From assembly GCA_964645765.1 (NCBI GenBank), contig CAZYBE010000006.1, forward strand, positions 18,175-82,174: DNA of 64,000 bases, in the 5' to 3' direction. The translations under genes were made by a program, and so were the position numbers. Every line of letters begins with the position of its first letter. Position 1 is the stretch's first letter. The DNA is from an uncultured Eubacteriales bacterium (GTDB taxonomy: Bacteria > Acidobacteriota > Aminicenantia > Aminicenantales > Aminicenantaceae). Of the stretch, positions 24,329 to 63,600 are shown piece after piece. Below the pieces are notes generated by a model. It made no database searches. It saw nothing but the letters and a program-made list of their open reading frames with translations, and had not been told where the DNA came from.

Positions 24329-24339
24329 AAGCAAGCATC

Positions 24340-24530
24340 TCCAAAACCGTGATGCATAGCCTATAAAGGAGGTGAGGGTTGAGGGTGAGGAGGCCCCTAT
24401 AAGGCCTGAGCGGGCATGGTTTCTCTCCCAAGGAGAGAAGAGCGAAGGCCGAATGGGAGCTGATTTTCCTCGCTGGGGAAAATCAGCGTGCGACGAATCC
24501 TCAATCCTCACCTCCCTCACGGAAATTGAG
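24340..24530. repeat. Highly structured intergenic element A. It has a long imperfect terminal inverted repeat (aggaggtgagggttgagggtgagg ... cctcaatcctcacctccctcac) and internal hairpins, and contains the ctgagcgggcatggtttctct box shared with other loci.
   Basis: Inverted repeats read directly. Shared 21-mer also at 59118-59138 and, reverse-complemented with one mismatch, around 33590. Confidence 0.45.
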
Positions 24531-24607
24531 ATACTCAGTCCTTGATTTTTCCTGCATTATCATCAACTGCTGTCTCCATGTTATGTGGCTCAGAAAATGA
24601 CCAATCT

Positions 24608-24773
24608 GGAATGGCTTAAGCGACCATTGAAGGTTTAGCCTTCCCTTGCCGTGCTTCGAGGGGACCCAGCTCTGCTGGGCGGCGAGGATGTCTGAGCGAA
24701 GCGAGTTCCGCAGCCGCCGAGAAGCGCGGCAAGGGAACGGCGTTAAAAACCTGAATGGGAGCGAAGCCATTCC
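24608..24773 (+). ncRNA. Candidate structured non-coding RNA / structured repeat, copy 1 (strand uncertain)
   Basis: 166 nt between asnS and rimO. 10-bp terminal stem ggaatggctt/aagccattcc, internal hairpin cccagc-tct-gctggg, and a 48-nt core identical to copy 2 at 47864..48032. Stems covary between the copies. Confidence 0.45.
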
Positions 24774-24822
24774 GGATTGGCTTCCTTTAGCTGTTTACTA
24801 ATGAGCCGTAACAATTTACAAT

Positions 24823-26151
24823 TTGATTCTGATGAATAAAGTCGCTCTGATCAGCTTTGGCTGTGCCAAAAACCTTGTTGACAGCGAAGTCATGCTCGGC
24901 CTCCTGGACAAGGCTGGCTATACCTTTGTCTCTGACCCAAAGGAAGCTGACACCGTCATTCTCAACACCTGCGGCTTCATCGAGCCAGCCAAAGAGGAAG
25001 CCCGTAATGCTTTAAACCAGGCAGTTGCTCTCAAACGAAAGTCTAAGGAAAAGAGAGTCATCGCTGTCGGCTGTTATGTCGAAAGATACAAGAGTCTTTT
25101 GGCTGCAGAATACCCTGAAATCGACACCTGGATTGGGGTCAACGATTTCGACAAGATTGTCCAAGCCATAGAGGGAAAACCATTTGTAAAATCAGAAACT
25201 TGCTTCCTTTATGACCACACCTTTCCCCGCCTCATCCAGACTCCTCCATCATGGGCTTATGTCAAGATATCCGAAGGCTGCTCCCACCAGTGCTCCTTCT
25301 GCGCCATTCCCCTCATTAAGGGACCTTACCGCTCGCGGCCGATCGCTTCCATCCTCCAGGAGGTTGAAGAGCTTTGTTCCCGTGGAGTCAAGGAAATCAA
25401 CCTTGTCTCCCAGGATACAACCTATTTCGGCCGCGACCTTGGTCTCGAGGATGGATTGACCTCTCTCCTCAGCCAGCTCCTTTCCATTCCAAAACTCGAA
25501 TGGGTCCGCATTCTCTACGGATATCCCGATGAAATAAGCTACTCGCTTCTTGAAATCATGAAGGAGAAAAGAATCTGCTCTTATCTTGACATTCCCTTCC
25601 AGCATTCCCATCCCAAAATCATAAAGACAATGAAGAGGGGAATGGACGGCGAGCGGGCGCTCGAGCTCGTCCAGAAAATTAGAGAAAAACTTCCTGATGT
25701 TGCGCTCCGGACATCTCTTGTTGTCGGGTTTCCGGGCGAGGGAAAAGAGGAATTCGATGACCTGGAAAGCTTTGTTTGGTGCGCAAGATTCGACCATCTC
25801 GGCGTCTTCTGCTATTCAAGAGAAGAAGGAACAGACTGTTTCGCTCTCGGTGACCCTGCTAAAGAGAGCATCAAGAAAAAAAGAAAGGATAGAATAATGG
25901 AGCTCCAGATGGTCATTTCCAAGGAAAACAACAAGAAATATTTTAAAAAGAGAATCGATGTCTTGATTGAAGGAGTTCTGAAAGAGAATCCCAAGATGCT
26001 GGTCGGCCGTGGCCCGTTTCAAGCTCCTGAGGTGGATGGCGTGATATTAATCGATGCCACTCGAAAAGCGTCAGAAGCCGTCAACACCATCCAGAAAGTT
26101 GAAATCAAAGGCTGGGATGTATATGATTTATACGGAAAATTGGGTACATGA
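24823..26151 (+). CDS. rimO: Ribosomal protein S12 methylthiotransferase RimO (radical SAM MTTase)
   Basis: MTTase N-domain (ALISFGCAKN), radical SAM CSHQCSFC, TRAM C-terminus. 442 aa. Confidence 0.8.
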   Translation: MILMNKVALISFGCAKNLVDSEVMLGLLDKAGYTFVSDPKEADTVILNTCGFIEPAKEEARNALNQAVALKRKSKEKRVIAVGCYVERYKSLLAAEYPEIDTWIGVNDFDKIVQAIEGKPFVKSETCFLYDHTFPRLIQTPPSWAYVKISEGCSHQCSFCAIPLIKGPYRSRPIASILQEVEELCSRGVKEINLVSQDTTYFGRDLGLEDGLTSLLSQLLSIPKLEWVRILYGYPDEISYSLLEIMKEKRICSYLDIPFQHSHPKIIKTMKRGMDGERALELVQKIREKLPDVALRTSLVVGFPGEGKEEFDDLESFVWCARFDHLGVFCYSREEGTDCFALGDPAKESIKKKRKDRIMELQMVISKENNKKYFKKRIDVLIEGVLKENPKMLVGRGPFQAPEVDGVILIDATRKASEAVNTIQKVEIKGWDVYDLYGKLGT

Positions 26152-33439: not shown

Positions 33440-33700
33440 GTTTCTTATTTATCCCGGGCGAAGGCTAAGTGGTTCGAAAACCGTTTGAATGGCTCCGGCT
33501 AAGTAGCTCGAAAACACGCAGGCTTTGCCCCAGCGAGGCAAAGCCTGCTCGGTTTCAGGCTTCGCTCTCCTCGACCGGAGGTCGAGGAACCATGCCCGCT
33601 CAGCCTTCAAACGGTTTTCGAGCTACTTAGCCTCTGCCAGATGGATCAAAAGCCTGCGTGTTTTCGAACCACTTAGCCTGAGCCCCAATTTGAATTTACA
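33440..33700. repeat. Composite palindromic intergenic repeat element. A 19-bp unit (ggctaagtRgYtcgaaaac) occurs twice direct and twice inverted, with internal hairpins and the ggctgagcgggcatggtt box.
   Basis: Read directly: ggctaagtggttcgaaaac (33463) and ggctaagtagctcgaaaac (33497), with reverse complements at about 33613 and 33661. Hairpin cctcgacc-gga-ggtcgagg. Confidence 0.5.
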
Positions 33701-38212: not shown

Positions 38213-38734
38213 TTGAAGAATTTATTGATCACTGGCCCTCCCCGCTGCGGAAAAACAACTTTGATCATGAGGCTGAGCCAGGACCCTTCTCTTTCTGATA
38301 AAATCGGAGGCTTCATCACCGAGGAATTCATGGAAAAAGGACAAAGGGTGGGCTTCAAGATCATCGCTCTTCCTGGCAAAGAAGAGGGCCTTCTCGCTCG
38401 CAAGAGCTATCCTTCGCCCCATCGTGTGGGAAAATATGGAGTGAACATCCAAGACCTTGAAAAAATCGGATGTTCTTCCCTGGAGGCTGCATTGCATTCA
38501 GGAAAATTTATCGTGGTCGATGAAATCGGCAAGATGGAACTTTTCTCAGAAAAATTCAGGACTGTTCTTTATCAGGCGCTTGAGGCTCCTCAAAAAATGT
38601 TAGCCACGATTATGGAAACAAAGAACCAATTCGCTGACAGGATTAAGAAGAGAAAAGATGTAAGAGTTATTCTTCTCAACCGAGACAATTTCGACCGAGT
38701 CTACCCTGAGGTTCGAGAATGGTTTAAAATGTGA
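38213..38734 (+). CDS. THEP1-type nucleoside-triphosphatase (P-loop NTPase)
   Basis: Walker A ITGPPRCGKTTL. About 173 aa, typical of the family. Confidence 0.65.
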   Translation: MKNLLITGPPRCGKTTLIMRLSQDPSLSDKIGGFITEEFMEKGQRVGFKIIALPGKEEGLLARKSYPSPHRVGKYGVNIQDLEKIGCSSLEAALHSGKFIVVDEIGKMELFSEKFRTVLYQALEAPQKMLATIMETKNQFADRIKKRKDVRVILLNRDNFDRVYPEVREWFKM

Positions 38735-39264
38735 TGAGAGGAGAAGAAATGAAGGCTCTTCTTGTGATTGACATGCTAAAAGACTTTCTCAATAAGGATG
38801 GCGCTCTGTATTGTGGCGATGAATCAAGGAAAATCATTCCCTTTGTCAAAGAAAAGATTGAAGAGTTCCATAAAGAGAGTGACCTGGTTGTTTTCATCTG
38901 CGATTCCCACGACCCCGATGACTTAGAATTCAAGATGTTTCCCAGGCATTGCGTTGCTGGCACAGAAGGAGCTGAGATCATCGACGAGCTTCCGGTTGGG
39001 AAAAAGGATGTTGTTGTCAAGAAGACCCGCTACAGCGCTTTCTACAAGACAAAGCTGGATAAAATTCTGAAGAAAAGGAAGGTCAGCGAAGTCTATATGG
39101 TCGGTGTCTGCACCTCAATCTGCGTCATGGACACTGTTGGAGACCTCCGAAACAGGGACTATCCAGTCTTTGTTTATAAAAACGGAGTGGCAGATTTCGA
39201 CCGGAAAGCCCATCAATTCTCCCTAGAGAGGATGGAGAAAACCTACGGTGCGAAAATAATCTAG
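38731..39264 (+). CDS. Isochorismatase-family cysteine hydrolase (nicotinamidase-like)
   Basis: ALLVIDMLKDF (catalytic Asp), K, and VGVCTSICV (Cys nucleophile). Confidence 0.7.
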   Translation: MMRGEEMKALLVIDMLKDFLNKDGALYCGDESRKIIPFVKEKIEEFHKESDLVVFICDSHDPDDLEFKMFPRHCVAGTEGAEIIDELPVGKKDVVVKKTRYSAFYKTKLDKILKKRKVSEVYMVGVCTSICVMDTVGDLRNRDYPVFVYKNGVADFDRKAHQFSLERMEKTYGAKII

Positions 39265-39351
39265 AAGGTCCTATCCAGAATGGCCTTGCTCCCATTCAGG
39301 TTTTTAACGCCGTTCTTTTTTTTGTGGATTTAAAATTTTTCCTGAAAGGAG

Positions 39352-45119: not shown

Positions 45120-45180
45120 AATTTTTCTAAGCTAGGCGAAGGCAGAGTGGCGAGAAGGCCGTTTGAAGGCTGAGCTATTT
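45120..45180. repeat. Short copy of the intergenic repeat family (ggcgaaggc ... ccgtttgaaggctgagc)
   Basis: Shares ccgtttgaaggctgagc with the reverse complement of the 33.5-kb element. Confidence 0.35.
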
Positions 45181-47758
45181 AAAATTGGATAACGACCTCT
45201 TTCCTTGAATAATCTCCCTCTTTGCCTTCAAATTTTATTTTAATCTTCTTCTCCAAACCTTGCTGCCGGATAACTTCGGCCTCCTTGAGCGAGACTAAGG
45301 AGCGGGGTGTGATAAGGTTCAGAATATAATCCTTCCCTCCCAACGCTTCAACCATAATCCGGAGTTGCTCATCGCTGAAGGTCGCTCGAATCACCTTCAG
45401 GCCAGAAGTCCGCTCCCCGATTTGAGGGAAATTCACAGGGGAGTCAATAAAAATACCCTTCTCGGTTATGACTTCCACCAGCGTCTTCGCTTTTATCTCA
45501 AGCTCTAACGCCAAGCAGACTTCGCCGCTTTTGTCTTCAAGACTGAAATTTCTTGCCTCTCCATTAACCTTCACCTCCTTCACCCGAGTTCCGTAACCCA
45601 ATGAGGGGGAAAAGAGGAGACGATAGGAAACTCCAACCTCAGCTTTAGGCTCGATTTGCAGGACAAGCCTAGCCTCAGAGCGCTGGAGGAGAAAATCAAA
45701 AATCTCATTTCCTATCCGAAAATTTCTGACACTGCATTCATCCCACCTTCCAGGAAGATTCGGCTTGAATTCAATCTCTCTTTTTAGAGCGCTTCCTCTT
45801 AATCCTAAAAGCCCTCTGACTGAGCAAGTGATGACCGGCGAAGAAGAGAAAATTTGATGAGGGACAGCTTCTTCGAGAGGCTTGAAAAACTCACCTGAGA
45901 AAAGCTCTGGGCAAAAACCCAAGGCGTTTATAAAAGTATTATAAGCCAAGCTCATAAGATGTGAAAACCCTGAGAAAGAGCGGCCATAATTATATTCTGC
46001 GACACAGACATATCCGGTGAGGAAAGGCCAGACCGAGCCGTAATTATAATTCAATGGGTCATAGTAAGTGCTCTTCGGCGAAAGAGACCTTACTCCCCAG
46101 TCTGTGCTCATCTCAGAGGAGGCAAAGAGGTCAAGGATGTCATCTGCCCTCTCCTGAGGAAACTGCCTGAAAAAAAGAGGCACTGAAGGCCAAACTGTTG
46201 TTTCCATTAGAGGCTTATCCTCTATGGTCACGGCATGGGCATATCGGCGCTCTTCCTCCACCCAGAATTTCTCGCGGACCGCTTGAATAGCCTTGTCAAA
46301 GGTCTTTTTTGCTTCCTGGGAAAGGGCTTTTTCCCCCATGAGCTGGGCAAGCTCTGAAAAGACATGATGCGCCTCGGCTGACAGGGCAGCCAGATATATA
46401 TCCGATTTTGTGCTTTTCAGAAAGGCCCCCAACTCCAGAGCTGCCAATCCAGCTGCAGTGTTTTCCATGAGGCCATCACCGTCTTTATCAGAAGAAAGAA
46501 CGTATTGGTACGCTTTTTTGAGCGACGTCCAGCTTTCTCTGATAAAGCTCAAATCCCCGGACCAATTGAGGTAATCACCCAAAGAAACAATATAGTAAGG
46601 AGTTGTATCCGCATGGTAAAAACCGTAAGGATAATCCTCAAACCAACGGATAAAGCCTGCCCCCTGAGATAGCTCGTGCATGACTTTCCCATCCTGCCGC
46701 TGGTTCGACCTGATAAAAGCCAATGCCTGCCGGGCGACATCAAACGAGCCGTAGCTGGTAATAGCCCAGGAATTGAAAAAAGCATCGCCTCCAAAAAACC
46801 AGTCAAAGCCCGGCCTCTCGCTCCTCCCGGAAAGGCCGTAGCCGGCCACCAGTCCGCATCCCAGTTGAGGATTGCAGACAAATGCCTCATCCACAGCTAC
46901 TTTGGCCCACTCGAAAGCTTGGTTCAATTTCTCATCCGGTGTCCGAAGGGAAAAATTCTCTTTTGCCAGCTTTTCAAAATGCTCGAACTTCTCGAGGTAA
47001 AGCTCCTTGAAATTTTTTCCAAGCCGAGAATAGAGCTCATCAGCCTTTGACCTACCTTCGTGGCTCGCGACGAAAAATATTGGATAAAATGTCCGCTTCG
47101 AGCCTTCAGGAGTAACCTTGATTTTTATCTTCATCTCTCCCTCTGGAAGGGCATGGGCTGGGCCTGCGGAAAATCTTTCACCTGCCGGACTCCCGACAAG
47201 AGCGACATTCTTTCTTGTCCCCTCTGAAAGAACAAAATATTTCTTCTCATCGTCCCAATAGCTATACTGGCCGCCTAAGCCTGCCGGCCACATGGGCTTC
47301 AGGTCAGGAGTAAAGCCGGCCACAACTGAGATGGGCTTGATGGTCTCGGCTGAAATGAGAATGACTGCCCCTGATTCCTTTAAAGGAGCAAAGAAAATTT
47401 CCTCTGCGGTGAAAGAGGAATGGGTGTAGCGAAGGATTGTTTGATGGGGATAAACATCAATCTTGGTTGCCAGTTGACTCCCCTCAATGATTTCATTCTC
47501 CTCTTCTGGGAAAAAATAAAGCTGAAAGTTATGAAGCACCTTGTAAGGGTAAATCCAGATTTCCAGATTTCCGCTTTCTGTTCCCAGGATGGCACTTTTC
47601 TGACCCACGCAGTCGAAATAAGCCCTGGGCTGAACAGCTCGTTCCAAATGAAGCTCTGAGCCCTGAAGTGGAAATTTTTCAATATAGGCTTGATCATTGC
47701 CTGAAGAAAAAATGGAGAGCAAGCAAAGAATTAATAAAAACAAGAAAATCCTTTTCAT
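45179..47758 (-). CDS. Secreted six-hairpin (alpha/alpha)6 glycoside hydrolase (GDE_C / GH63 / GH15-related)
   Basis: Start at MKRIFLFLLIL (RBS AAGGAGGG) is preferred over the longer ORF. Central region GFDWFFGGDAFFNSWAITSYG and DKDGDGLMEN are typical of six-hairpin glycosidases. Confidence 0.45.
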   Translation of the reverse strand: MKRIFLFLLILCLLSIFSSGNDQAYIEKFPLQGSELHLERAVQPRAYFDCVGQKSAILGTESGNLEIWIYPYKVLHNFQLYFFPEEENEIIEGSQLATKIDVYPHQTILRYTHSSFTAEEIFFAPLKESGAVILISAETIKPISVVAGFTPDLKPMWPAGLGGQYSYWDDEKKYFVLSEGTRKNVALVGSPAGERFSAGPAHALPEGEMKIKIKVTPEGSKRTFYPIFFVASHEGRSKADELYSRLGKNFKELYLEKFEHFEKLAKENFSLRTPDEKLNQAFEWAKVAVDEAFVCNPQLGCGLVAGYGLSGRSERPGFDWFFGGDAFFNSWAITSYGSFDVARQALAFIRSNQRQDGKVMHELSQGAGFIRWFEDYPYGFYHADTTPYYIVSLGDYLNWSGDLSFIRESWTSLKKAYQYVLSSDKDGDGLMENTAAGLAALELGAFLKSTKSDIYLAALSAEAHHVFSELAQLMGEKALSQEAKKTFDKAIQAVREKFWVEEERRYAHAVTIEDKPLMETTVWPSVPLFFRQFPQERADDILDLFASSEMSTDWGVRSLSPKSTYYDPLNYNYGSVWPFLTGYVCVAEYNYGRSFSGFSHLMSLAYNTFINALGFCPELFSGEFFKPLEEAVPHQIFSSSPVITCSVRGLLGLRGSALKREIEFKPNLPGRWDECSVRNFRIGNEIFDFLLQRSEARLVLQIEPKAEVGVSYRLLFSPSLGYGTRVKEVKVNGEARNFSLEDKSGEVCLALELEIKAKTLVEVITEKGIFIDSPVNFPQIGERTSGLKVIRATFSDEQLRIMVEALGGKDYILNLITPRSLVSLKEAEVIRQQGLEKKIKIKFEGKEGDYSRKEVVIQF

Positions 47759-47863
47759 CCTTTTCCCTCCTTGTTCAGGAAATGGGCTTAGGCCTATGCT
47801 CATTTATAATCCAGTGCAGGATGATTTTTCAATAATTAAAAATCCTTCATTTGAAAATTTTTT

Positions 47864-48032
47864 GGGAAATAGCCGCAGCGACCATTGAAGATTTAGCCTT
47901 CGACATTCGCTCTTCGAGGGAACCCGACGAAGTCGGGCGGCGAGGATGTCTGAGCGAAGCGAGTTCCGCAGCCGCCGAGAAGAGCGAATGGAGAATGGCG
48001 TTAAAAATCTGATTGGAGCGAGGCTATTTCCC
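47864..48032 (+). ncRNA. Candidate structured non-coding RNA / structured repeat, copy 2
   Basis: 11-bp terminal stem gggaaatagcc/ggctatttccc, hairpin cccgac-gaa-gtcggg, and the same 48-nt core as copy 1. Confidence 0.45.
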
Positions 48033-48125
48033 AAAAATAATATTTTTTCCTTGAATCATTGAGTTTTTTATGTCAATATCTTGCCTCATTTTAAATTAAT
48101 TCTCTTCTTCATCGGAGGCTGAACA

Positions 48126-49583
48126 ATGTCATCAGTATTTCAACAATTAAAGCCATCCCACCTCTGGAAACATTTCGAACAGATTCTCAAAATCCCTCAT
48201 TGCTCGGGCAATGAAAAAGCTTTGGGCGATTATATTGTCTCCACGGCCGAGCGTCTGAATTTGAGCTGCAAAAGAGATAAGGTCGGGAATGTCGTCGTCG
48301 CAAAAAAGGCGACACCCGGACATGAGAAGGCCGAACCTGTCATTCTCCAAGGACATATGGACATGGTCTGTGAAAAAAATTCCGAAGTTGTCCATGACTT
48401 CAACCAAGACGCCATAAAAGCCGAAATCAAAGGCGAATGGGCTCAGGCTAAAGGGACAACCCTTGGCTCTGACAATGGAATTGGCCTGGCCGCTTCTTTA
48501 GCAGCCATGGAAGACAAGAGTCTTGTCCACGGACCTCTGGAATTTTTGTTCACAGTGGACGAAGAAACAGGACTTACCGGTGCGAACAAGATAGAATCCG
48601 GCTTTCTTAAAGCGAAAAAACTTCTCAACCTGGACAGCGAAGATGAGGGAGCTTTCACCATCGGCTGTGCTGGTGGAGCTGACTCAGAAATCAGCTTCCC
48701 TTTGAAGAGGAAGACACGAAGCAGCCAAGAGCTCTATGGGCTTAAGATCCATGGCCTGAGGGGCGGACATTCGGGGCTTGATATCAATCAAGGCCGTGCC
48801 AACGCTATAAAATTGCTGGCGCGCATGCTCTGGCAAGCTTTGAAGAAATTTTCATTTGAATTGGTTCGAATGGAAGGAGGAAATAAAAGGAACGCCATCC
48901 CGAGGGAAGCATGGGCTGATTTGCTCTTAGAGCCGAACCAGATTCAAGACCTTTCCATCTTTCTCCGAAAAGCATTTGAAAAGATACAATTCGAATACAA
49001 GGCTGTGGAAAAGGAGGCCAAATTTTCTTTCGAAAAGTCAGACGGGGAAAAAGAAGGCCCTTTGACTCCAGAATCTCAGGCAAATCTCGTCAACCTCCTC
49101 TTCAGCCTTCCCCATGGAGTCATCGCTATGCACCCTGAGATAAAAGAGCTTGTGGAAACATCTACAAACCTGGCCATCATCCATACCTTTCAAGACCATG
49201 CCCAGATCATCTGCAGCAGCCGGAGTTCAGTCGCTTCATCTCTGGAAGCCACCAGGAATGCTATCACTGCCCTCTGTGAGCTTGGCAAAGCAAAAGTCAC
49301 TCAGCCTGAAGGATATCCTGGCTGGACGCCAAACCTCCACTCCCCTCTTCTCAAAACTTTGAAAGAAGTCTACAAAAAGACTTTTCAAAAGGAGCCGGAA
49401 GTCGTAGCTGTCCACGCCGGCTTAGAATGTGGAATCATAGGAGAAAAATTTCCCGGGATGGATATGATTTCTTTTGGCCCGACCATCGAGCATCCTCATT
49501 CTCCAGAGGAAAGAGTCCATGTTGGCTCTGTGGAAAAATTCTGGAAATTCCTGACCGCAGTTCTCTCTGAGTTGGCTACGTAG
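48126..49583 (+). CDS. pepD: Aminoacyl-histidine (Xaa-His) dipeptidase, M20C family
   Basis: HCSGNEKALGDYI and ILQGHMDMV metal-ligand motifs. 485 aa. Confidence 0.85.
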   Translation: MSSVFQQLKPSHLWKHFEQILKIPHCSGNEKALGDYIVSTAERLNLSCKRDKVGNVVVAKKATPGHEKAEPVILQGHMDMVCEKNSEVVHDFNQDAIKAEIKGEWAQAKGTTLGSDNGIGLAASLAAMEDKSLVHGPLEFLFTVDEETGLTGANKIESGFLKAKKLLNLDSEDEGAFTIGCAGGADSEISFPLKRKTRSSQELYGLKIHGLRGGHSGLDINQGRANAIKLLARMLWQALKKFSFELVRMEGGNKRNAIPREAWADLLLEPNQIQDLSIFLRKAFEKIQFEYKAVEKEAKFSFEKSDGEKEGPLTPESQANLVNLLFSLPHGVIAMHPEIKELVETSTNLAIIHTFQDHAQIICSSRSSVASSLEATRNAITALCELGKAKVTQPEGYPGWTPNLHSPLLKTLKEVYKKTFQKEPEVVAVHAGLECGIIGEKFPGMDMISFGPTIEHPHSPEERVHVGSVEKFWKFLTAVLSELAT

Positions 49584-49628: not shown

Positions 49629-50198
49629 TTATTTTTTCAGCGCTTTAACGCCCCAGAGAGTCAGGGGAGGCGAGAAATATGACTCCATTCCCACAGTTCC
49701 TTCGGGAGTCAGCCGAATGCTTGCTTGTTCGTAGATTCTTCCCTTTCCCTCTCCCTTGTCGTTGATATCGAGCTCAATGACCATGAAGGGAAATCTGGCA
49801 TCTACCCTCTGCTGGGCCTCTACATCCCAGCTTTGCCTTGGGGTAAAGAGCAAAATTTTCCTTCCTTTGTCCGTCGGGATGCTGTGCGCGGCGTGAATGA
49901 CGATTTTCACACCGCGGCCGCCAATAGGTCTGAAAATCCCCTTATTCATCGCATTGAAGACGCTCATGAATGATTCATAACCTTCTTTGGAGAAGACTTC
50001 CTTTAAACGCGAGATTTCCTCGGCACTGGTGTAGCTGTCGATCGAAATCTCGAATTTCGTCGCCACTCCTGCTTTCGGTCCAGATTGCATGAGGAGCCTG
50101 GCTTCAAATTTCTCCTCGCACCAGATGACGGTGCTCAAACCCAGGCAGGCGGCCAGGACTATAAACACCAGGCGAATTTTCATCCTGCGTCTTTTCAT
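49629..50198 (-). CDS. Secreted hypothetical protein consisting only of the about 170-aa N-domain shared with the downstream outer-membrane protein
   Basis: Signal peptide. About 70% identity to the N-domain of 50292..51668; high nucleotide identity indicates recent duplication. Confidence 0.45.
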   Translation of the reverse strand: MKRRRMKIRLVFIVLAACLGLSTVIWCEEKFEARLLMQSGPKAGVATKFEISIDSYTSAEEISRLKEVFSKEGYESFMSVFNAMNKGIFRPIGGRGVKIVIHAAHSIPTDKGRKILLFTPRQSWDVEAQQRVDARFPFMVIELDINDKGEGKGRIYEQASIRLTPEGTVGMESYFSPPLTLWGVKALKK

Positions 50199-50291: not shown

Positions 50292-51668
50292 TCAGAATTT
50301 GAACCTCAAACCGGCCCAGATGCTAAGATTCCGCAAATCGAGCACGGCTTTGCGAGCACCGGCTGGTTCGTTTTCCAGAATAGCCAGCCTCGGCTGAGGC
50401 TCGCTTTCGAGGTAATAGAGCGCTCCTTCCCTTTTATAACCCACCACCACAGGATATCTCTGGAACGACTCCGAACCTTCGAACCCGTCGAGGCGGGCAT
50501 AGCGGCCCTGGGCCTCGATGAACAACGACACCTTAGGGTTCAGAGCTAATTCAAACACACCTCCGCCGTGAACGCCAAACCCCTGTCCTTTGGCGCTCTG
50601 ACCGAAGTCCTCTCTTTCATCCCCCATAAGGAGATTCAGGCTGAGCTTATAGTCTGCCTGATAGAGCCCGACCCCTCCATGGAGATAAAATGAAACCAGC
50701 CTGCCCAGCAGCAGCCAGTATGAAATCCCAAGTCTAACATGAATCGTCTGTAAATTGGGTGCGCTATTAAGATTGAAAAGCATACCAGGATTTTCATAGA
50801 AAACCAGAAGGTTCTCGGCATTCGCCCTCCCGGCACCGACCCCGAGGCTGACGCCGATTCGAGGCGTGACCTTATAGATGAGGTCGGCCGCAATCTCTAA
50901 TCCAGAGCTGAGAGACTGGGTCCGCTTATCGTCGATAGTGAGACCCTGAGCGGCAATGTCCTCGGCCCTCGCTTCGAATTCGCCTTGGCTTCCCCGCTTG
51001 AAATCTCCGCAGTCAAAGAAGCTCCCTCCGCCCGAGAGCTTCAAGCTGAGCCCGATGCCGCGGAATTTGCCTGTATCCTTTTCTCCAACATCCGGTTTCG
51101 GCTCGGCCAGCGCTCTAACCCCCCAGAGAGCCAGGGGAGGCGCGTTATACAAATCCATTCCTACAGTTCCTTCACCGGTCAAGGTGATGCTCACTTGTTC
51201 ATAGATTTTTCCCTTTCCCTTCCCTTTATGGCCAATGTCGAGCTCAATGAGCATGAAGGGAAATCTCCAATCTATTATCCGGGGAGCAGCCGCATCCCAG
51301 CTTTGACTTGGAGTAAAGAGCAGTATTTTCCTTCCTTTATCCGTCGGGATGCTGTGCGCGGCATGGATGACGATATTCACACCGAGGCCGCCGATAGGCT
51401 TAAAAATCCCCTTATTCATCCCACGGAAGGCGCTCATGAATGATTCATAGCCTCCTTGGGAGAAAACCTCCTTAAGCTGCGAGATTTCCTCGGCACTGGT
51501 GTAGCTCTCGATCGAAATCTCGAACTTCGTCGCCAGGCCTCCACTCGTTTCGAGTTCGGTGAGGAGTCTGGCTTCGAATTTTTCCTTGGCCAAAAGGAGA
51601 TTGCTCAAACCCAGGCAGGCGGCTACGGCCATGAAGCTCAAGCAACTTTTCATCATCCATCTTCTCAT
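50292..51668 (-). CDS. Outer-membrane beta-barrel protein with an N-terminal domain of unknown function (paralog of 49629..50198)
   Basis: Signal peptide, N-domain, Gly-rich linker, alternating-hydrophobic beta strands and terminal aromatic (GLRFKF). Confidence 0.5.
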   Translation of the reverse strand: MRRWMMKSCLSFMAVAACLGLSNLLLAKEKFEARLLTELETSGGLATKFEISIESYTSAEEISQLKEVFSQGGYESFMSAFRGMNKGIFKPIGGLGVNIVIHAAHSIPTDKGRKILLFTPSQSWDAAAPRIIDWRFPFMLIELDIGHKGKGKGKIYEQVSITLTGEGTVGMDLYNAPPLALWGVRALAEPKPDVGEKDTGKFRGIGLSLKLSGGGSFFDCGDFKRGSQGEFEARAEDIAAQGLTIDDKRTQSLSSGLEIAADLIYKVTPRIGVSLGVGAGRANAENLLVFYENPGMLFNLNSAPNLQTIHVRLGISYWLLLGRLVSFYLHGGVGLYQADYKLSLNLLMGDEREDFGQSAKGQGFGVHGGGVFELALNPKVSLFIEAQGRYARLDGFEGSESFQRYPVVVGYKREGALYYLESEPQPRLAILENEPAGARKAVLDLRNLSIWAGLRFKF

Positions 51669-59076: not shown

Positions 59077-59140
59077 TCAAACGCTAATACGAGCGGTGAG
59101 TGGTGAAGGCCGGTATGAGGGCTGAGCGGGCATGGTTTCT
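59077..59140. repeat. Copy of the intergenic repeat family (gaaggccgg ... ctgagcgggcatggtttctct)
   Basis: 21-mer identical to 24407-24427. Confidence 0.4.
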
Positions 59141-59146
59141 CTGCGC

Positions 59147-63529: not shown

Positions 63530-63600
63530 TTGACAATAGCGAAGGCTTAGTGCTTAGAAAACCGTTTTCAAAGCACTAAGCCTGAGCTTTGGTGTAGACC
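63530..63600. repeat. Copy of the intergenic palindromic repeat family (gcgaaggcttagtgcttagaaaaccgttttcaaagcactaagcc)
   Basis: Palindrome cttagtgctt...aagcactaag around gaaaaccgttttc. Overlaps the stop codon of the radical SAM gene. Confidence 0.4.

Follow-up and report, generated by a model that had tools for sequence, protein, structure and literature searches.

A structured intergenic repeat upstream of pepD is most probably a relic of a MITE family abundant in Candidatus Aminicenantes

The repeated element located between the divergent glycosidase and pepD genes of the window (the whole 64-kb stretch of DNA analysed here) is most probably the structure-conserved core found inside members of a MITE family abundant in Candidatus Aminicenantes, and the copy at this locus (copy 2) would then be a relic of that family. 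We commit to the reading that copy 2 has no gene-specific role at the pepD/glycosidase locus.

Copy 2 occupies 169 bases (positions 47864-48032, plus strand), and the core of copy 1 spans positions ~24601-24780 of the same strand. The two are 82% identical across ~155 nt and share a 48-nt centre without any difference (GGGCGGCGAGGATGTCTGAGCGAAGCGAGTTCCGCAGCCGCCGAGAAG). Differences in the arms are two-sided and preserve pairing, such that copy 2 carries CATTCGCTCTTC/GAAGAGCGAATG at positions where copy 1 carries CTTGCCGTGCTTC/GAAGCGCGGCAAG. Copy 2 folds at -80.9 kcal/mol compared to -52.7 +/- 4.2 kcal/mol for dinucleotide shuffles (z=-6.8), its reverse strand folds at -70.8 kcal/mol, and the base of the hairpin falls exactly on 47864-48032. 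A profile HMM built from 83 family members matches exactly three places in the window:

47856-48038, plus strand: copy 2 (E=3e-60)
24599-24783, plus strand: copy 1 (E=1e-54)
39266-39316, minus strand: third copy, truncated (E=2e-9)

Alignment, HMM and fold relative to shuffles thus agree that, as a sequence-only reading of this DNA had proposed, copies 1 and 2 are real copies of one structured element. The third copy retains just the 3' ~50 nt of the core. In a related locus (L341), a full copy apparently occupies the same site, and its right flank (...TCTAAATTATTTTCG) is similar to window sequence overlapping the end of the gene at 38731-39264.

The same reading had identified the genes flanking copy 2 correctly, as judged by Pfam domains and by the relatives of pepD. 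The pepD gene (48126-49583, ATG at 48126) encodes dipeptidase D with a Peptidase_M20 domain; its best named relatives are from Candidatus Aminicenantes, and an exact-protein look-up returned no exact match on record for this PepD. The glycosidase gene (45179-47803, minus strand) has Pfam matches to MGH1-like GH / GH116. The spacing previously given to pepD is approximately borne out, in that copy 2 ends 93 nt before the ATG at 48126. A spacing of 106 nt to the glycosidase is obtained only with an internal ATG at 47758, and it becomes 60 nt with the start of the 874-aa open reading frame at 47803; this 874-aa length is the one called in the relative L120.

A family-specific 25-mer scan of metagenomes yielded at least 120 loci, and from the metagenome loci listed together with four genome loci we extracted 83 distinct full-length copies, whose cores are 169-185 nt long. 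The RNAalifold consensus of these 83 copies predicts a three-way junction within a long imperfect hairpin, composed of an outer stem, an asymmetric internal loop, a second long stem, a side hairpin and an apical hairpin. The following features are assigned in copy 2:

47864-47874, plus strand: 5' half of the outer stem (GGGAAATAGCC), which pairs with GGCTATTTCCC at 48022-48032
47892-47898, plus strand: TTTAGCC side of the internal loop, with its partner GGCGTTAAAAA at 47997-48007
47923-47937, plus strand: side hairpin P2 (CCCGAC-GAA-GTCGGG), a 6-bp stem and triloop, from fold and covariation
47938-47974, plus strand: apical hairpin (CGGC..GGA[...]TCC..GCCG), from fold and covariation
47948-47967, plus strand: apical 20-mer (GTCTGAGCGAAGCGAGTTCC), with the mini-hairpin GC-GAA-GC flanked by GA/GA

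Compensatory substitutions maintain the ~170-nt core as this three-way-junction hairpin. Among the 83 copies, 27 of the 54 pairs carry compensatory double changes, including 12 of 13 pairs in the outer stem (helix 1) and four of five in P2 (helix 6), and the closing pair of the apical loop (columns 117-138) is UA in 39, GC in 35 and CG in seven copies. Paired cells make up 96.3% of the total compared to 86.3% in column shuffles, a value that none of 500 shuffles reached, and the figure falls to 35-49% when the partners are slid by 1-3 columns. Changes on both sides of a pair are present in 489 cells versus 159 in shuffles. The columns of the asymmetric internal loop are nearly invariant across the family alignment, and the same GTTAARAA/TTTAG loop is also found, in either orientation, in hairpin repeats of other phyla. 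Two copies (L259 and L246) carry a different, longer hairpin in place of P2.

It is the strand with GTCTGAGCGAAGCGAGTT whose folding is favoured by selection. In each of the 83 copies this strand has the more stable fold (mean -83.3 versus -70.8 kcal/mol), and there are 175 G-U cells compared to 53 A-C cells, the latter corresponding to G-U on the opposite strand. Because the fold is both covarying and strand-specific, we conclude that selection acts on the core as a single strand. Both hairpin tips of the core are C-GNA-G triloops, a type of loop more characteristic of stable DNA hairpins than of RNA, and GCGAAGC is a classic hyper-stable DNA mini-hairpin. A search of the window with Rfam 15 gave no matches at gathering thresholds and only noise at E<=10.

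When the flanks are extended, most copies prove to be embedded in a larger palindrome whose ends are defined. A full element measures ~245-270 nt and is bounded by terminal inverted repeats (TIRs) of ~23 nt, which are of three types:

TIR type a: GGTTCTCTTCCATTTTGTGTGGG
TIR type b: GGnAAGCATCTCCAAATCCGTGAT
TIR type c: GGCTTTGTCCCAAAGTGACGTGAT

Full copies are flanked by 8-bp, AT-rich direct target-site duplications (TSDs), for example GTTATAAC (L260), AATAAATC (L269), TATTAAAG (L297), AATAAGAT (L353), AATTAATT (L273) and ATGGCTTG (L251). The spacing of TIR pairs is always ~245-270 nt. The type of shell tracks the core subfamily, with an outer stem TTCGGGGATGGAT accompanying type a and GGTTTTGGGAAATAGC accompanying type b, and the same core is found in three TIR shells and shell-less. 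Of 78 copies with enough flanking sequence, 34 have both TIRs at five or fewer mismatches, 17 have one and 27 have neither. Nested and chimeric copies are also present, and hairpin repeats are inserted in other hairpin repeats. The family is less than ~600 bp in unit length, non-coding, multi-copy and dispersed, with TIRs, a TSD of fixed length and insertion polymorphism, and these are the characteristics by which MITEs are recognized.

Aligned to full type-a relatives, copy 1 retains eroded MITE arms and extends over 24572-24814 (plus strand), with remnants GTCTCCATGTTATGTGGCT on the left and GAGCCGTAACAA on the right (plus strand, from the alignment and a listing of the flanks). The eroded right arm ends only ~20 nt upstream of the rimO ATG at 24834 (MNKVALIS...), which, reading the sequence, we take to be probably the true start; the mechanical open reading frame begins at TTG 24823. 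Directly upstream of copy 1 is a second MITE, whose core is structured but different:

~24331-24537: second MITE
24333: its left end, AAGCATCTCCAAAACCGTGAT (TIR b, one mismatch)
24517-24535: its right end, TCACGGAAATTGAGATACT
Between the ends: its core, GGAGGTGAGGGTTGAGG...GGCCTGAGCGGGCATGGTT...CCTCAATCCTCACCTCC

Together, copy 1 and this second MITE fill most of the ~505-nt spacer before rimO, and the MITE family fills much of the intergenic space in this uncultivated Aminicenantes lineage.

A second repeat family, made up of nested palindromes (GGCGAAGGCTAAGTGGTTCGAAAAC..., GGCTGAGCGGGCATGGTTTCTC), is also present in the window, at the following sites:

33456-33685: main site of the second family
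63533-63593, 45135-45175, 59107-59142 and 24391-24426: further sites

One second-family motif, GGCTGAGCGGGCATGGTTCC (33584-33603, minus strand), agrees with the apical 20-mer at 13 of 20 positions. In six metagenome copies of the first family (L256, L307, L345, L265, L306 and L270), a segment of similar size replaces approximately positions 28-54 of the left arm; in L256, the only one of the six that was read, the insert is a second-family unit. In addition, the same MITE family is present on three MAG contigs (L001, L020 and L028) from GTDB genomes titled 'uncultured Eubacteriales bacterium', which suggests either that a bin is mislabelled or chimeric or that the family has a broader host range.

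The length of the TSD, the GG tips and a loose resemblance of the TIRs lead us to infer that full members would be mobilised in trans by the DDE transposase of some IS family with 8-bp TSDs, putatively IS6- or ISL3-like. The likeness to ISL3 concerns ends that we take to be of the form GGCTCTT.... For IS6 elements, an inverted-repeat pattern GG..cTGTt..caaa and 8-bp direct repeats are described, and two IS6-derived MITEs of 227 and 336 bp are on record (PMC7986276). The Aminicenantes family resembles IS6/IS26- or ISL3-derived MITEs in its 8-bp direct repeats, its GG tips and its TIRs (~15-24 nt in such MITEs). When the ends are checked against the IS6 pattern (PMC7986276), the direct repeats and GG tips are present, but the cTGTt/caaa part is matched, loosely, only by TIR c (GGCTTTGTCCCAAAG...), and TIRs a and b fit poorly. 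Unlike MITEs with an identified parent of this kind, the family yielded no transposase gene flanked by such TIRs, either in ~1 Mb of related loci, in which there are no TIR pairs 0.8-3 kb apart, or in viral contigs, where TIR scans gave chance matches only.

Several bacterial MITEs that form hairpins are well known, including Correia (Neisseria), ERIC/IRU (enterobacteria), RUP/BOX (pneumococcus), Bcr1 (Bacillus cereus) and Nezha (cyanobacteria). These are 100-300 nt, non-coding, high-copy, intergenic elements with TIRs and TSDs that form a long imperfect palindrome, and Correia and ERIC hairpins have been shown to act as RNA. In its general features, the Aminicenantes family is like them in size, in having TIRs and TSDs, in polymorphism between strains and in the presence of truncated and nested copies. 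It differs from them in its apparently unrelated sequence, in its 8-bp AT-rich TSD (TA in Correia), in its ~170-nt three-way junction with compensatory changes and strand asymmetry, in the occurrence of its core in three shells or none, and in having an apical 20-mer that is common to unrelated hairpin repeats of other phyla. A literature search by sequence strings and keywords found no description of the element or of its apical motif. As far as we have checked, therefore, a MITE is a known kind of element, but this family, its covarying three-way-junction core and the pan-phylum apical motif are undescribed.

The site upstream of pepD was compared among relatives of the window. By alignment to full type-b elements, copy 2 consists of the core only, and has no arms, no TIRs and no recognisable TSD. 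An orthologue at the same site in another metagenome (L309) is likewise core-only. The closest relatives (L120 and L121, with pepD 94% identical) retain only the last ~30-40 nt of the element, two others (L122 and L123, 88% identical) have an empty site with a 198-nt spacer, and L124 has another upstream gene and lacks the element. A ~90-nt block directly upstream of the pepD ATG (CTTGAATCATTGAG.TTTTTATGTCA.TAT...GGAGGCT) is common to all five, and copy 2 sits just upstream of this block. As a result, copy 2 lies outside the conserved control region of pepD and is unlikely to be within the pepD 5'UTR; to judge from these relatives, the element is dispensable for pepD. Copy 2 would have lost, or never had, its arms and TIRs, and since it lacks them it is most likely an immobile relic between the two divergent genes. 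Both of the closest relatives carry a full copy elsewhere, between pepD and a gene with a GWxTD domain (L120 5465-5632 and L121 1923-2090, both minus strand). The window has no copy downstream of pepD, and ~3.2 kb of extra genes separate its pepD and GWxTD genes.

Fifty-two family copies have neighbours that can be called. Eighteen of these lie between divergent genes, 19 between tandem genes with the element antisense, 11 between tandem genes with the element sense, and four between convergent genes, such that 29 of the 52 copies have a co-oriented downstream gene and 23 have none. AT-rich, promoter-side spacers are therefore preferred, consistent with the AT-rich TSDs. Scanned for sigma-70-type consensus sequences, neither copy 2 nor a full element gave a promoter-like site, and no terminator-like site was found on the sense strand of either. 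The reverse complement of the 3' module does give a weak terminator-like match, with a 6-bp stem and T5, in copy 1, in L269 and in the remnant at 39278-39297.

The remnant at 39266-39316, when read on the plus strand, begins 2 nt past the stop of an isochorismatase-family gene (38731-39264), and the segment 39262-39330 (plus strand) contains a hairpin resembling a terminator, GAATGGCCTTGCTCCCATTC, with AGGTTTTTAA and a T8 run after it. Roughly the same 3' segment (positions ~130-169) survives in at least four independent remnants at different loci, and 3' remnants of this type could have been reused as terminators. Nevertheless, we do not favour a terminator role for the remnant, because the consensus match is weak and the fold is no better than that of shuffles (z=-0.47).

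The tip of the core has a distribution far beyond that of the family. Exact matches to the apical 20-mer are present in more than 119 genome stretches from many phyla, compared to about one that we estimate would be expected by chance in 596 Gb. The matches listed include Nitrospirales (several per genome), Marinobacter, Methylotenera, Thauera, Ralstonia, Pseudoxanthomonas, Sphingobacterium, Barnesiella/Phocaeicola, Lachnospiraceae, Mogibacterium, Desulfobacterales, Spirochaetota and Saccharibacteria. The 20-mer is situated at the tips of otherwise unrelated long hairpins in at least seven phyla. For 125 instances among the matches listed, it is enclosed by at least 8 bp in 98% and by at least 15 bp in 92%, compared to 50% and 26%, respectively, for positions drawn at random from those loci. 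Stems that enclose it in different lineages are unrelated and form 85 flank clusters among the matches listed. Only the three triloop bases (GAA, GCA, GGA, GTA, AAA, TAA...) and one C/T position vary within the 20-mer; the consensus of the apical module is GCGAGGAYTGTCTGAGC-NNA-GCGAGTTCCGCAGC, and the hairpin-apex motif can also be written GTYTGAGCNNAGCGAGTT.

The apical module is hosted by MITE cores in Aminicenantes and by composite repeats in other groups (Nitrospirota, Beta- and Gammaproteobacteria, Bacteroidota, Bacillota, Desulfobacterota, Spirochaetota and Saccharibacteria). In many lineages, the apex hairpin is one module of a ~230-300-nt, non-palindromic, multi-copy composite repeat without inverted termini, in which a conserved T-rich run and a hairpin with a pyrimidine arm and a purine arm (for example CCTTTCTTTGCTTACTTTCTTTGG-CAAGA-CAAAGAAAGT in Ralstonia) come after it on the same strand. 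Copies in the window have no T-rich second module. One such composite repeat, also represented by many of the loci L002-L185, is:

L365 1455-1640: composite repeat on the 302.9-kb megaplasmid of Ralstonia pseudosolanacearum GMI1000

Composite repeats often add a small hairpin that ends in ...GACGAAAC. A triple helix formed by the T-rich second module is unsupported, given that mirror repeats score better than direct repeats in seven cases and worse in eight, with nine ties. On three Nitrospirales MAG chromosomes (L013, plus strand, 1996; L022, minus strand; L035, plus strand, 1329), some copies, but not others, have the 3' arm of their second module (CAAAAG^GAACCTCG) interrupted by short apex-like inserts of 25-80 nt (GCCTGTCCTGAGCGTAGCGGAG..., AGCCTGTCCTGAGCAGAGCGAAG). 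The GAGCG.AGCG motif appears to be spreading as a very small unit.

Around the 119 apex loci listed, no shared neighbour family (transposase, RT, RAYT or Y1) was found; the neighbours are housekeeping genes, and an rve-type IS occurs in only four loci, all from Nitrospirales. Rfam searches of 18 apex loci from other phyla returned only tRNAs and generic hairpin (miRNA-family) noise. The element itself is absent from collections of plasmids, phages and E. coli genomes, in which matches to a 36-nt apex consensus were limited to Ralstonia megaplasmids (3-5 copies each) and a coding segment of hsdM (E. coli). An apex 18-mer was also encountered in frame (NSLRSN) in a phage replication protein, which we rejected as a chance or coding match unrelated to this class of hairpins, and some degenerate 18-mer matches in viral contigs are likewise coding or chance.

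It is a tentative idea, and one that we would not favour at present, that the apical module is an undescribed pan-bacterial functional unit that caps unrelated hairpin stems. If true, there would be either a universal host factor that binds RNA or single-stranded DNA (ssDNA), or a tiny, horizontally spreading module that seeds hairpins. A 20-nt hairpin tip recognized by a conserved protein or RNA partner would represent a new and very widespread nucleic-acid signal.

One point that counts against the MITE-core reading is that cut-and-paste transposition by a DDE enzyme does not obviously require an internal fold that covaries and is strand-specific, and thus the core must have some further role beyond what this reading explains. 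We propose that it would act as a single strand, either as read-through RNA or as ssDNA, without gene-specific regulation. The foremost alternative to the MITE-core interpretation, although one we consider rather improbable, holds that the family is a set of sRNA genes or a read-through RNA module (an RNase III/E target or a stabiliser) that rides in MITE shells, with the fold and the apical loop being the functional part that binds a host factor. The strong covariation, the excess of G-U over A-C and the better folding of one strand in 83 of 83 copies would all be expected of such an RNA, as would an apical motif that is identical across phyla and a core that recurs in three TIR shells and shell-less. 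However, the sigma-70-type scan gave no promoter-like site in copy 2 or a full element, the sole terminator-like match in an element is on the opposite strand, their orientation is unbiased (11 tandem copies are sense versus 19 antisense, and 29 of 52 have a co-oriented downstream gene), and the C-GNA-G triloop tips are more like those of DNA. The sequence-only reading had argued against a metabolite riboswitch and in favour of either a small RNA or a mobile structured repeat, and it is the mobile part of this proposal that is upheld, by TIRs, 8-bp TSDs, presence/absence between relatives, and truncated and nested copies.

Somewhat less probable still is that the core is an ssDNA hairpin element of the REP/REPIN-RAYT or IS200/IS605-derived type, moved by an HUH/Y1 enzyme encoded elsewhere, and inserting without target duplication and sometimes into other MITEs. 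Core-only copies at several independent loci stop exactly at the base of the hairpin and have no TIR or TSD, hairpin repeats are nested inside hairpin repeats, and classic examples of stable ssDNA structure include GNA triloops and the GCGAAGC mini-hairpin. One strand is favoured, and the element strand is locally C-rich in 37 of 61 cases (Wilcoxon p=0.017), but this GC-skew signal is weak and confounded by gene orientation, and we discarded a replication-strand bias on the same grounds. Furthermore, copies without TIRs may equally be eroded MITEs, as copy 1 visibly is, and no Y1, RAYT or shared protein family is found near the 119 apex loci listed. The element is like REP/REPIN sequences in that these are extragenic palindromes arranged in mosaics, and some enterobacterial REPs have similar loops (…TAAGCGaAGCGC…; Table 1, PMC2817692). 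In contrast to REPs, it lacks the defining GTAG/GTGG tetranucleotide at its 5' end and its other end, it measures 170-270 nt rather than 20-40 nt, full copies have TIRs and TSDs, and there is no RAYT near the apex loci listed. On the MITE-core reading, core-only copies, the 27 of 78 copies with neither TIR and the insertions of hairpins into hairpins suggest that there may be, now or formerly, a second, TIR-independent route by which the core moves.

A cis-regulatory leader or riboswitch for pepD, rimO or the glycosidase is highly improbable even though copies lie on the sense strand in the 5' intergenic regions of pepD and rimO, because such a function needs a sense bias that the family does not have (23 of 52 copies have no co-oriented downstream gene), the element is missing upstream of pepD in close relatives and is positioned upstream of the conserved promoter/5'UTR block, and it has no Rfam match. 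The suggestion that the element could act in cis on pepD or the glycosidase is not supported: it is absent or reduced to a stub in close pepD orthologues, it lies upstream of the block conserved before pepD in all the relatives, and its orientation relative to flanking genes is unbiased across the family. The earlier argument against a metabolite riboswitch agrees with this absence from close pepD orthologues and with the lack of a conserved sense position. With the pepD/rimO regulator lead dropped, annotation pipelines should mask this repeat and not call it as an RNA gene.

Finally, the region downstream of pepD contains a 300-nt direct repeat with 80% identity between its two units:

49638-49937 and 51108-51407: units of the direct repeat, inside two minus-strand open reading frames (49629-50198 and 50292-51668)

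In the relative L122, a COQ7-like gene is found at the matching position after pepD. The direct repeat in the window is probably a duplicated domain or a paralogue.
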